Assembly: GCF_016026235.1 (NCBI RefSeq)
Contig: NZ_CP065613.1
Strand: one strand, 5' to 3'
Length of the DNA: 64,000 nt
From: Escherichia coli
GTDB taxonomy: Bacteria > Pseudomonadota > Gammaproteobacteria > Enterobacterales > Enterobacteriaceae
Shown here: positions 43,122 through 52,348 of the stretch, in pieces
Layout: every line of letters begins with the position of its first letter
Position numbering within the stretch: the stretch's first letter is position 1
Translations under genes and position numbers: made by a program
Notes under the pieces: generated by a model
Told to the model about the DNA's origin: nothing
The model's database searches: none
Seen by the model: the letters and a program-made list of their open reading frames with translations, nothing else

Positions 43122-44417
43122 CCTGAGGGATCCCCAGAAAATTTAGTAAACCATTATCATATTGGTATACCGTTGCTGTAGAACTTTCAGCCCTGCGTCA
43201 AGTGACAGTGTGTTTAGTATGAGTGGAGAATGTCGAATCACATTCTCCGCCAGTTTTAATAACGAGATGACTCGCCTGTGCTTCACTGTATTTGCCTGAT
43301 ATTTATGATGTATCCCTTTGTTTTCCAGGCTGAAACCGCTTAACCACATAATGATACTGGCTAATGTTGCGATCAGACTCAATACCGTGACCCGCCCGGA
43401 TGAATGACTGGCACCAAACCGTAGTCCAAATCCCCAGCGAGGATTTTTTTCATCCCTGAAATTTTGCTCAATTTGCATTCTACGGCTGTATAATTTCATT
43501 ACCTGTTTTGGCGAGAACTCAGTACTGTTTGTGAAAATAAACCATGGTGATTTCCCGGCAGTACGAGCTTTAGCCGTCACCGATGGTCTGGTTGCTCTTT
43601 CCTTCGAGCGTTTAAATCAACGACCTTTAGGCTTACTTTTATAAAGATAAAAATGCCCTTCATGTTGTGCATTTTTATCTCGACCCAGCAGGCCTTCACC
43701 TAAATAAATTGCTGTCGTTGATGCTTTTGTGCCTGAGTCCGACACCTTTTCCCAGCCATTACCAACATTGTAATAATGATTGCCCAGTACCCGGCAAATA
43801 TAGGTCCAGCCACGGGAGCGGAGCTGTTGGAACCATCGCCCCTGAAAACCGGCATCTGTAATAACAATGACATCAGTCCCGGGGGAAAAGCACTCAGCAA
43901 GCGATTCCAGAAAACGCTCATGTACATCTGCATTCGCTGTCTGTGATGATGGAACGACACAACTCATCAACGGTAAAGAACGCCCGTCACATGCCAGGCT
44001 TGCCCGCAAAAGCTGAAAACGAGAGGCATGATAAGCACTCCAGTCAATGAGTATCACAACACGAGACATTCCCCGCGTAATCTTTTGGGTAATTCGCTGA
44101 AAAATGGTGGAAACCTCATTTTGCAAATGTCGATTCCCCAACAGTCGATCCACCCGCTTTATTTTGTTTTTAACTGATGCCGTACCGGTTAAATGACGCC
44201 CGATACTGGTAAGTGTGAGGGAAGCGCCATTTATTACAGCATTAGTTGCGTCAATCAGTGATTTTTGACGGTAAAGATGCAAAGGGGCCAGTATGTTGTT
44301 AAGGAAATTTTGGCATAATGAACGTGCAGGCATAGTGGTGATCTCCTTGAAATTGTTAGCACAATCAATTAGATCACATCTCACTATGCCTGTCTTGTTT
44401 TCTGGGGATTCCTCAGG
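43122..44417 (-). mobile_element. IS186-like insertion sequence (IS4 family), about 1.3 kb, copy 1, inside fryC; about 11-bp target duplication GGAAATTCTCC
   Basis: Ends CCTGAGG(A/G)ATCCCCAGAAAA inverted; same element as at 51053-52348; flanking fryC codons KFS are duplicated on both sides. Confidence 0.85.
43143..44333 (-). CDS. IS186-like transposase; frame contains an in-frame TGA (revcomp of 43617-43619) between N-terminal ~238 codons and C-terminal 145 codons
   Basis: MPARSLCQNFLNNILAPLHLYRQKS...IKRVDRLLGNRHL...LYKSKPKGR*...YSRRMQIEQNFRDEK (Y-x2-R-x3-E-x6-K); reminds me of the IS10 transposase. Confidence 0.75.
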
Positions 44418-44673
44418 AGAATTTCCCGCTATTAAGAGCATCCATGATGCCGATCTCAGCAGGAATTTTAAGCCAGCTATAAGCAATCAGCTGGCTGAAA
44501 GCGAGGATCACACCGCCCATAATTAAGGTTGGCACCATGCGTGAAATCCCTGACATCACATGCTGCGGGAGTTCACCCCAGAAGCTGCTTTTAGAGGCCT
44601 GCGGATTCTTAACTGCCGCTGCCGCACCGGATGCGCCAGGCACAACGGTTGCACTGCGTTTTTTAATGGCCAT
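44418..44673 (-). pseudogene. fryC: fryC N-terminal portion (first ~85 codons), truncated at the IS186-like junction
   Basis: MAIKKRSATVVPGASGAAAAVKNPQASKSSFWGELPQHVMSGISRMVPTLIMGGVILAFSQLIAYSWLKIPAEIGIMDALNSGKFS then stop supplied by IS sequence. Confidence 0.85.
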
Positions 44674-44694
44674 AACAATTATCCCTGTCGAATA

Positions 44695-45021
44695 TTACTG
44701 TTGTTCAGAGGCAATCATCTCTTCGATTTCTTTGATGATGCCCGCAGCGTTTTTAATTGCGTCCTGCAAAGTGATTTCATAAACATCGCGTGATTCGAAA
44801 CGTTCGTTATCTTCCGGGGTTACTGCCACGGAGTGGATGATGATGGTCGCTTCGGCGATATCCTGCGCCGTCAGGCGATTCTGGATACCGTCCGCGCCCT
44901 GGGTTTCAATTTTCACTTCATAACCGGCTTCTACCGCTGCTTCTTCCAGCGCCTGAGCGGCCATAAAGGTGTGAGCCAGGCCCATCGGGCAGGCACATAA
45001 GGCAATCAGTTTCTTACTCAT
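44695..45021 (-). CDS. fryB: FryB PTS EIIB component (fructose-like), 108 aa
   Basis: ORF trimmed to MSKKLIALCACPMGLAHTFMAAQALEEAAVEAGYEVKIETQGADG... Confidence 0.9.
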   Translation of the reverse strand: MSKKLIALCACPMGLAHTFMAAQALEEAAVEAGYEVKIETQGADGIQNRLTAQDIAEATIIIHSVAVTPEDNERFESRDVYEITLQDAIKNAAGIIKEIEEMIASEQQ

Positions 45022-45239
45022 CGTTAATTCCTCGTTCAGTGATAGTTGACGAGTGAAATTATGAACGTGCAAAACAAATCGCCGTTACCAGACAAATAAT
45101 GCATTTACTGGAGAATTAATCCCGCTGTACGGAAGTGTGACGCAGGTCGGCCTTGTGAGGGGACACAAAAAAAAATTGAATTAACTGTATGATTTAAAAG
45201 ATTATCGGGAGAGTTATCTCCCGATATAACAGGAAGGAT

Positions 45240-49690: not shown

Positions 49691-49706
49691 TGTATGACAG
49701 ATCACT
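49691..49706. promoter_or_regulatory. Putative CRP site upstream of nupC
   Basis: TGTATGACAGATCACT approximates TGTGA-N6-TCACA; by eye only. Confidence 0.3.
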
Positions 49707-49820
49707 ATTTTTGAAGCTTGTCACAGGACGTCATTATAGTGTGTGTCAGATCTCGTTTTCCTTAACCATGTTACATAGAATGTGCACGGAAATTTAACCT
49801 GCCTCATATTTGGAGCAAAT

Positions 49821-51023
49821 ATGGACCGCGTCCTTCATTTTGTACTGGCACTTGCCGTTGTTGCGATTCTCGCACTGCTGGTAAGCAGCGACCGCAAAAA
49901 AATTCGTATCCGTTATGTTATTCAACTGCTTGTTATCGAAGTGTTACTGGCGTGGTTCTTCCTGAACTCCGACGTTGGTTTAGGCTTCGTGAAAGGCTTC
50001 TCCGAAATGTTCGAAAAACTGCTCGGATTTGCCAACGAAGGGACTAACTTCGTCTTTGGTAGCATGAATGATCAAGGCCTGGCATTCTTCTTCCTGAAAG
50101 TGCTGTGCCCAATCGTCTTTATCTCTGCACTGATCGGTATTCTCCAGCACATTCGCGTGTTGCCGGTGATCATCCGCGCAATTGGTTTCCTGCTCTCCAA
50201 AGTCAACGGCATGGGCAAACTGGAATCCTTTAACGCCGTCAGCTCCCTGATTCTGGGTCAGTCTGAAAACTTTATTGCCTATAAAGATATCCTCGGCAAA
50301 ATCTCCCGTAATCGTATGTACACCATGGCTGCCACGGCAATGTCCACCGTGTCGATGTCCATCGTTGGTGCATACATGACCATGCTGGAACCGAAATACG
50401 TCGTTGCTGCGCTGGTATTGAACATGTTCAGCACCTTTATCGTGCTGTCGCTGATCAACCCTTACCGTGTTGATGCCAGTGAAGAAAACATTCAGATGTC
50501 CAACCTGCACGAAGGTCAGAGCTTCTTCGAAATGCTGGGTGAATACATTCTGGCAGGTTTCAAAGTTGCCATTATCGTTGCCGCGATGCTGATCGGCTTT
50601 ATCGCCCTGATCGCCGCGCTGAACGCACTGTTTGCCACCGTGACTGGCTGGTTTGGCTACAGCATCTCCTTCCAGGGCATTCTGGGCTACATCTTCTATC
50701 CGATTGCATGGGTGATGGGTGTTCCTTCCAGTGAAGCACTGCAAGTGGGCAGTATCATGGCGACCAAACTGGTTTCCAACGAGTTCGTTGCGATGATGGA
50801 TCTGCAGAAAATTGCTTCCACGCTCTCTCCGCGTGCTGAAGGCATCATCTCTGTGTTCCTGGTTTCCTTCGCTAACTTCTCTTCAATCGGGATTATCGCA
50901 GGTGCAGTTAAAGGCCTGAATGAAGAGCAAGGTAACGTGGTTTCTCGCTTCGGTCTGAAACTGGTTTACGGCTCTACCCTGGTGAGTGTGCTGTCTGCGT
51001 CAATCGCAGCACTGGTGCTGTAA
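49821..51023 (+). CDS. nupC: NupC nucleoside:H+ symporter (CNT family), 400 aa
   Basis: ORF trimmed to [53 protein letters not shown]... Confidence 0.95.
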
Positions 51024-51052
51024 GACCATACATAAAAAAGCCGGGGATAATT

Positions 51053-52348
51053 CCTGAGGAATCCCCAGAAAACAAGACAGGCATAGTGAGATGTGATCTA
51101 ATTGATTGTGCTAACAATTTCAAGGAGATCACCACTATGCCTGCACGTTCATTATGCCAAAATTTCCTTAACAACATACTGGCCCCTTTGCATCTTTACC
51201 GTCAAAAATCACTGATTGACGCAACTAATGCTGTAATAAATGGCGCTTCCCTCACACTTACCAGTATCGGGCGTCATTTAACCGGTACGGCATCAGTTAA
51301 AAACAAAATAAAGCGGGTGGATCGACTGTTGGGGAATCGACATTTGCAAAATGAGGTTTCCACCATTTTTCAGCGAATTACCCAAAAGATTACGCGGGGA
51401 ATGTCTCGTGTTGTGATACTCATTGACTGGAGTGCTTATCATGCCTCTCGTTTTCAGCTTTTGCGGGCAAGCCTGGCATGTGACGGGCGTTCTTTACCGT
51501 TGATGAGTTGTGTCGTTCCATCATCACAGACAGCGAATGCAGATGTACATGAGCGTTTTCTGGAATCGCTTGCTGAGTGCTTTTCCCCCGGGACTGATGT
51601 CATTGTTATTACAGATGCCGGTTTTCAGGGGCGATGGTTCCAACAGCTCCGCTCCCGTGGCTGGACCTATATTTGCCGGGTACTGGGCAATCATTATTAC
51701 AATGTTGGTAATGGCTGGGAAAAGGTGTCGGACTCAGGCACAAAAGCATCAACGACAGCAATTTATTTAGGTGAAGGCCTGCTGGGTCGAGATAAAAATG
51801 CACAACATGAAGGGCATTTTTATCTTTATAAAAGTAAGCCTAAAGGTCGTTGATTTAAACGCTCGAAGGAAAGAGCAACCAGACCATCGGTGACGGCTAA
51901 AGCTCGTACTGCCGGGAAATCACCATGGTTTATTTTCACAAACAGTACTGAGTTCTCGCCAAAACAGGTAATGAAATTATACAGCCGTAGAATGCAAATT
52001 GAGCAAAATTTCAGGGATGAAAAAAATCCTCGCTGGGGATTTGGACTACGGTTTGGTGCCAGTCATTCATCCGGGCGGGTCACGGTATTGAGTCTGATCG
52101 CAACATTAGCCAGTATCATTATGTGGTTAAGCGGTTTCAGCCTGGAAAACAAAGGGATACATCATAAATATCAGGCAAATACAGTGAAGCACAGGCGAGT
52201 CATCTCGTTATTAAAACTGGCGGAGAATGTGATTCGACATTCTCCACTCATACTAAACACACTGTCACTTGACGCAGGGCTGAAAGTTCTACAGCAACGG
52301 TATACCAATATGATAATGGTTTACTAAATTTTCTGGGGATCCCTCAGG
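51053..52348 (+). mobile_element. IS186-like insertion sequence (IS4 family), copy 2, in the nupC terminator hairpin; about 11-bp target duplication GGGATAATTCC
   Basis: Same terminal inverted repeats and identical transposase ORFs as copy 1; flanks reconstitute AAAAAGCCGGGGATAATTCCCCGGTTTTTTT. Confidence 0.85.
51137..52327 (+). CDS. IS186-like transposase with in-frame TGA at 51851-51853
   Basis: Identical protein segments to copy 1; ORFs 51086..51853 and 51890..52327 share a frame. Confidence 0.75.

Follow-up and report, generated by a model that had tools for sequence, protein, structure and literature searches.

When two copies of one insertion sequence (IS) lie in inverted orientation on a bacterial chromosome, they offer a substrate for recombination; we asked whether, at one such locus in Escherichia coli, the DNA between the copies has in fact been flipped. 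The locus lies in a 64-kb stretch of sequence (64,000 nucleotides of contig NZ_CP065613.1, hereafter the window), where two copies of the element ISEc60 bracket a 6.6-kb block that carries genes for glucokinase (glk) and for a manganese (mntH) and a nucleoside (nupC) transporter. In our overall account, to which we assign a probability of roughly 0.85, the two copies inserted separately and the block was later inverted by homologous recombination between them, the inverted form being the one seen in a sister genome, FDAARGOS_943.

Two identical copies, each with its own target duplication

The two copies are each 1,294 bp long, are spaced 6,637 bp apart and, by full nucleotide alignment, are 100% identical at all bases, which bears out a preliminary description of the window that had reported identical copies in inverted orientation. 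The pair is the sole long repeat within the window. Its features are listed below (TSD, target-site duplication; IRL and IRR, left and right terminal inverted repeats).

43113..43122, no strand: 10-bp TSD GAGAATTTCC, left of copy 1; present once where the site is unoccupied (strain 88-3493, K-12)
43123..44416, minus strand: ISEc60 copy 1, 1,294 bp; IRR 43123-43141, IRL 44398-44416
44333..43143, minus strand: copy 1 transposase frame, broken by a TGA at 43619..43617 (codon 239)
44417..44426, no strand: 10-bp TSD GAGAATTTCC, right of copy 1
51044..51053, no strand: 10-bp TSD GGGATAATTC, left of copy 2; left half of the nupC/pdeA terminator hairpin
51054..52347, plus strand: ISEc60 copy 2, 1,294 bp; IRL 51054-51072, IRR 52329-52347
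51137..52327, plus strand: copy 2 transposase frame, broken by a TGA at 51851..51853 (codon 239)
52348..52357, no strand: 10-bp TSD GGGATAATTC, right of copy 2; right half of the nupC/pdeA terminator hairpin

The positions and orientations first given for the copies were right, except that each end had been drawn one base too long. A repeat finder reports arms of 1,298 nt for the 1,294-bp element: with a target of the form g|N10|c, and an IS whose first base is C and whose last is G, two chance matches are gained per end. Each copy carries its own matched, direct duplication, as had been proposed (GAGAATTTCC, the duplication at copy 1, is the reverse complement of GGAAATTCTC), but the length of 11 bp originally given to these duplications was wrong. 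The TSD is 10 bp and not 11, because at a further copy of the element, in motA (L006; L-numbers are our own handles), the base preceding the duplication is an A. A 10-bp TSD was likewise found at 12 of 12 distinct ISEc60 sites gathered from related genomes.

The outer flanks of the pair are two different 10-mers, and the empty sites at fryC and at nupC/pdeA hold one copy of each. Additionally, two lineages (L033 and VL46) have ISEc60 in fryC only, with no copy at nupC/pdeA. These observations agree with the earlier suggestion of independent insertions: the two copies inserted independently of one another.

The block is inverted in a sister genome

The inversion isomer that the preliminary description had predicted from the pair exists. 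In FDAARGOS_943 (CP065615.1), ISEc60 is present at the same two sites and the block is inverted, giving the order pdeA-IS-fryC'...nupC-IS-fryC''-ypdF. Compared with the window, this genome has 0 substitutions and one 1-bp indel across the 6.6-kb block, 4 substitutions over the 12 kb that directly adjoin the block and 21 over 41.7 kb at greater distance; it belongs to the same clone. The TSD halves are reciprocally swapped: one IS lies between GGGATAATTC and GAGAATTTCC, and the other has the reciprocal pair. All of the junctions between IS ends and flanks are kept in FDAARGOS_943 and their partners alone are exchanged, which is the pattern that a crossover within the IS leaves behind. In another member of the clone, GCA_031665325.1, the block lies as in the window, and the transposase is intact at each of the two sites. 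Both isomers are thus observed between strains (the window and GCA_031665325.1 versus FDAARGOS_943), not within one culture.

With both ISs removed, the window is collinear with thousands of E. coli genomes, including the MG1655 gene order, in accord with the K-12-like orientation assigned to the block at the outset. Because the TSDs match and the order is collinear with that of other E. coli, the window arrangement is the ancestral isomer and that of FDAARGOS_943 the derived one.

We propose that, in an IS-rich E. coli chromosome, ISEc60 would have inserted separately in two preferred targets, fryC and the nupC/pdeA stem-loop, and that each insertion would have made its own 10-bp duplication. 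Homologous recombination between the identical inverted copies would then have flipped the 6.6-kb block and left the IS-flank junctions intact. It is because the copies are both inverted and identical that the block can flip with no change of junction. The flip was presumably made by recombination of the RecA type; as a general rule, recombination between inverted repeats yields inversions (PMC8072062). Because no junction changes, the flip is likely to be nearly neutral, with little phenotypic effect, and only the orientation of the block relative to replication would be reversed. IS-mediated inversions in Shigella, enteroinvasive E. coli and other E. coli resemble this one in that exchange between inverted ISs flips DNA and swaps TSD halves. 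They differ from it in scale and consequence, since here the flip is local (6.6 kb) and not replichore-scale, and it alters no gene or junction.

The element is ISEc60, an IS10-type element

The element had initially been labeled IS186-like, a label that we do not retain. The window copies match RefSeq-annotated ISEc60 at 1,293 of 1,294 nt (99.9%), with the sole difference at position 798. Annotated matches occur in E. coli CFSAN029787, FDAARGOS_943, VL46, RMDEC strains and others, where the RefSeq label is "IS4-like element ISEc60 family transposase" (NCBI PGAP/ISfinder naming). When repaired, the 396-aa transposase scores 360 bits against the NCBIfam model NF033591 (IS4 family; cut-off 152). 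It shares 52% identity with the transposase of ISSfl1, from Shigella flexneri plasmids, and 36% with that of IS10A/ISVsa5 over 93% of its length; in the alignment with ISSfl1 and IS10A, residues D97, D160 and E289 and the YREK motif are invariant. The two ISEc60 ends agree at 18 of their first 19 nt, and these ends, CTGAGG(A/G)ATCCCCAGAAAA, resemble the CTGAAG(A/G)ATCCCC of IS10A (compare CTGAGGRATCCCC in ISEc60 with CTGAAGRATCCCC in IS10A). The element is thus ISEc60, which within the IS4 family is of the IS10 type, and it is not a relative of IS186.

We considered an IS186 identity directly and rejected it. InsL1, from K-12 IS186, aligns with the transposase over the 22-residue YREK motif only (E = 0.008), and the IS186 terminal repeats, CATAAGCGCTAACTTAAGGGTTG, are unrelated to the window ends, CTGAGGAATCCCC and CTGAGGGATCCCC. 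The outermost bases already differ (CATAAGCGCTAAC... in IS186, CTGAGGAATCCCC... in ISEc60), as does annotated length (1,345 bp for IS186, 1,294 bp for ISEc60).

ISEc60 is like IS10 (IS10A, ISVsa5) in its conserved catalytic triad and YREK motif and in its ends (CTGARGRATCCCC), and the window recalls Tn10 in having two inverted IS copies around a cargo. IS10, however, makes a 9-bp duplication and has its own hot-spot target consensus, whereas ISEc60 makes a 10-bp duplication in a target of the GGGG-N6-CCCC type; and unlike Tn10, the window pair did not arrive as a unit. From ISEc60 itself, whose ends and 10-bp duplication they share, the window copies differ by A798T (Arg239 to TGA), present in both. 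A literature search for ISEc60, FDAARGOS_943 and the assembly accession returned nothing relevant.

ISEc60 repeatedly uses the same targets

The 12 sites define the ISEc60 target as g|GGRAWWTYCC|c. To follow its use across strains, we grouped genomes by block sequence into clade A (the window, FDAARGOS_943, L031 and L036; 0-1 substitutions apart) and clade B (L030, L032 and L037-39). Clade B, L033 and VL46 are each ~60-82 substitutions (~0.9-1.2%) from the clade A block, and L033 is ~36 substitutions from clade B. ISEc60 occupies the identical 10 bp of fryC in clade A, clade B, L033 and VL46, and in the last three (that is, in at least three other lineages) the element has the orientation opposite to that in the window. 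In clade B the nupC/pdeA hairpin, too, is occupied by ISEc60, at the 10 bp used in the window. We asked whether the IS could have flipped in place through its own terminal repeats, and rejected this: copies in the flipped orientation are full-length and retain the A/G difference at end position 7, and the orientation classes occur in lineages 1.2% apart, so these are independent hits. fryC and nupC/pdeA are recurrent ISEc60 hot spots.

Two sites used by IS186 in K-12 are also used by ISEc60. IS186C of MG1655 (L052, NC_000913.3 2514273-2515617) occupies the same nupC/pdeA hairpin, its TSD (GGATAATTCC) being 1 bp out of register with that of the window (GGGATAATTC). The hairpin of K-12 IS186A (dnaJ/hokC, TSD GGATCACTCC) holds ISEc60 in GCA_031665325.1 (TSD GGGATCACTC), again 1 bp out of register. 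Both elements choose a palindromic target with a G-run and a C-run and make a duplication of ~10 bp. This likeness in targets shows IS186-like behavior, not IS186 membership, and it shows that a target rule is common to two distantly related elements. The shared nupC/pdeA hairpin probably explains the earlier label.

We also observed a tandem dimer of the element, IS-GGGATTTACC-IS, with the same 10-bp spacer at two loci: fryC in VL46 (L005 2698-5295) and hok/ydcA in GCA_031665585.1 (L043/L044). Each dimer has its own outer 10-bp duplication, GAGAATTTCC at fryC and GGGATTTTCC at hok/ydcA, and the dimer seems to transpose in one piece.

Alternative explanations for the pair and its inversion

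Several points weigh against separate insertion followed by a homologous-recombination flip. Our account assumes that the window and its sisters inherited the insertions from a common ancestor, yet each site, being a hot spot, may have been hit again independently. The evidence is at the level of assemblies and not of reads. The flipped isomer comes from one assembly, just 1 of at least 4 long-read assemblies of the clade, and a misoriented segment bounded by repeats would imitate the swapped TSD halves. If the FDAARGOS_943 arrangement were such an artefact, the pair would be a potential recombination substrate that was never realized. We consider this unlikely, in that a 1.3-kb repeat is far below typical long-read length and IS-IS recombination is active in the clade, as seen in the exchanged TSD halves at L008/L049 and the relocated block in L031. 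The identity of the two copies also makes the crossover point unmappable, such that sequence alone cannot tell homologous recombination from the action of transposase on the two inner (IRL) ends, and elements of the IS10 type are known to cause inversions and deletions of adjacent DNA. A transposase-driven inversion would, however, leave a newly formed target junction and a further duplication, whereas here all IS-flank junctions are unchanged and only the partners are swapped, and we judge that route very improbable. As for a programmed switch, in which a site-specific recombinase would regulate the block, the inverted-repeat geometry and nothing else speaks for it: we found no recombinase gene in or beside the block (42000-54700), each repeat is an entire IS, and the two isomers do not differ in any promoter or gene junction. 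We give this possibility almost no weight.

The pair might also be read as a Tn10-like composite transposon, a 9.2-kb IS-cargo-IS unit that arrived, or is moving, as a whole. The architecture fits, with inverted copies of an IS10-type element and both outer ends IRR. Moreover, in the sister L031 the same block and two flanking copies sit between serA and rpiA within a 10-bp outer repeat, GAGGTTCCCC, and neither a lone nor a pre-existing ISEc60 was found at the serA/rpiA site in complete E. coli genomes. In the window, however, no single duplication surrounds the whole unit; because its outer flanks, GAGAATTTCC and GGGATAATTC, are different 10-mers, the unit did not insert as a composite, and each IS has its own matched TSD. 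The cargo consists of core genes in their native K-12 context in the window, relocated only in L031, and both window transposase genes are broken. The L031 copies, for their part, are in direct orientation with the nupC side joined to the other IS end, so that L031 does not hold the window unit relocated. A composite origin is therefore highly improbable, and we retain separate insertion and subsequent recombination as the account of this locus.

Two rearranged loci are described here in their own right. The L031 locus (2329-11551 of L031, GCA_901482675.2) is 1 substitution from the window; the nupC side of its block lies on IRR and not on IRL, an arrangement that recombination alone cannot derive from that of the window. 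The ISEc60 copy at L008 and L049, common to the window genome and GCA_031665325.1, has unmatched flanks (GGATATTTCC and GAGAATGCCC) and is a trace of another, older IS-IS rearrangement.

Both copies share a nonsense allele

The protein segments of the two copies had been described as identical, which is correct, but both frames are interrupted by the same in-frame TGA. Relative to all other ISEc60 examined, both window copies have T for A at element position 798, which changes Arg239 (AGA) to TGA. The stop falls between D160 and E289, and the product is without the third catalytic residue and the YREK motif. Because the stop removes the catalytic Glu289, neither copy should be able to transpose alone; the window copies would be non-autonomous and movable only with transposase from other copies.

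Among 5,426 complete E. coli genomes, no ISEc60 copy has the T798 allele. When a very large collection of assemblies was queried for exact matches to the 238-aa truncated product, the sole hit was GCA_900449985.1, an NCTC assembly. Five ISEc60 copies in that assembly have T798 (L006-L010), two of which are the window copies, and this marks the assembly as the one from which the window comes. At 4 of the 5 positions (fryC, nupC/pdeA, the L007/L057 site and the rearranged L008/L049 junction), the intact A allele is present in a sister genome at identical junctions. The junction at the fifth, in motA, is common to other assemblies, whose contigs stop before position 798.

An initial hint that T798 had spread to new sites by trans-mobilization was that the motA and L007 junctions are missing from FDAARGOS_943. 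We rejected this idea, given that the L007 junction has the intact allele in a sister and the motA junction occurs in other assemblies; new insertion does not explain the spread, because sisters carry the intact allele at the same junctions. We suggest only tentatively, and at less than even odds, that T798 is real and was copied by gene conversion into five dispersed, pre-existing copies in the recent history of one strain. The remaining explanations are a consensus artefact in GCA_900449985.1, or a minority allele that short-read polishing homogenized in the sister assemblies.

The motA copy was also examined for its context. In GCA_900449985.1 (contig UGFA01000005.1; L006/L054), a T798 ISEc60 interrupts motA downstream of flhDC, with TSD GGAAAGTCCC, and the interruption predicts a non-motile strain. 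The same motA::ISEc60 junction is found in several short-read assemblies.

The bracketed block and other IS differences

The gene content originally read between the copies, fryC'-fryB-glk-yfeO-ypeC-mntH-nupC, agrees with our own examination of the block and its flanks:

44417..51053, no strand: bracketed block, 6,637 bp, fryC'-fryB-glk-yfeO-ypeC-mntH-nupC
42122..43093, minus strand: fryC C-terminal remnant, 323 codons from a TTG; promoter and N-terminus severed by copy 1
44413..44673, minus strand: fryC N-terminal remnant, 86 codons; stop codon provided by the IS end
44695-45021, minus strand: fryB
45240-46205, minus strand: glk
46409-47665, plus strand: yfeO
47780-48106, plus strand: ypeC
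48247-49485, minus strand: mntH
49821-51023, plus strand: nupC
52377..54566, minus strand: pdeA (yfeA), outer flank of copy 2, convergent with nupC

Copy 1 interrupts fryC; where the site is unoccupied, as in K-12 and other strains, GAGAATTTCC is present once. Copy 2 splits a stem-loop between the convergent genes nupC and pdeA. Uninterrupted, this stem-loop (AAAAAAGCCGGGGATAATTCCCCGGTTTTTTT) has a predicted fold of -22.6 kcal/mol and scores as an intrinsic terminator on both strands.

Other changes at this locus were noted in related sequences. In L011 (GCA_036247785.1, ~3960-3990), fryC has no IS and is cut by a point nonsense mutation within the same 10-bp target (GGGAAATTC to GGGTAATTC). 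In L035 (5336-6894; Logan SRR23563379), a contig with the fryC'::IS junction has ABC (ATP-binding cassette) transporter genes beside ypeC in place of mntH and nupC, which is a further rearrangement or deletion at the block locus.

Elsewhere in the window, an IS4-family element of 1,426 bp (10118-11543; NF033592, 304 bits) is flanked by a 12-bp duplication, ATACTTTGGCTG, at 10106-17 and 11544-55, and is absent from FDAARGOS_943. FDAARGOS_943 in turn has an IS1 at the position equivalent to window ~4173-4180.

Significance

The phenomenon described here is already known: ISEc60 is a catalogued IS, the mechanism is a known one, and no new type of system is involved. Inversion between inverted IS copies is textbook knowledge. 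The locus provides a naturally occurring example of two inversion isomers within a single clone, and it identifies the orientation of this block as an unstable marker. ISEc60 repeatedly strikes terminator hairpins that IS186 uses in K-12, and because it repeatedly strikes the same hairpins, the same IS pairs and rearrangements can arise independently in separate lineages and be mistaken for shared ancestry. If gene conversion of T798 is true, it would represent a fast concerted evolution that silences an IS family, by way of the same IS-IS recombination as the block flip.

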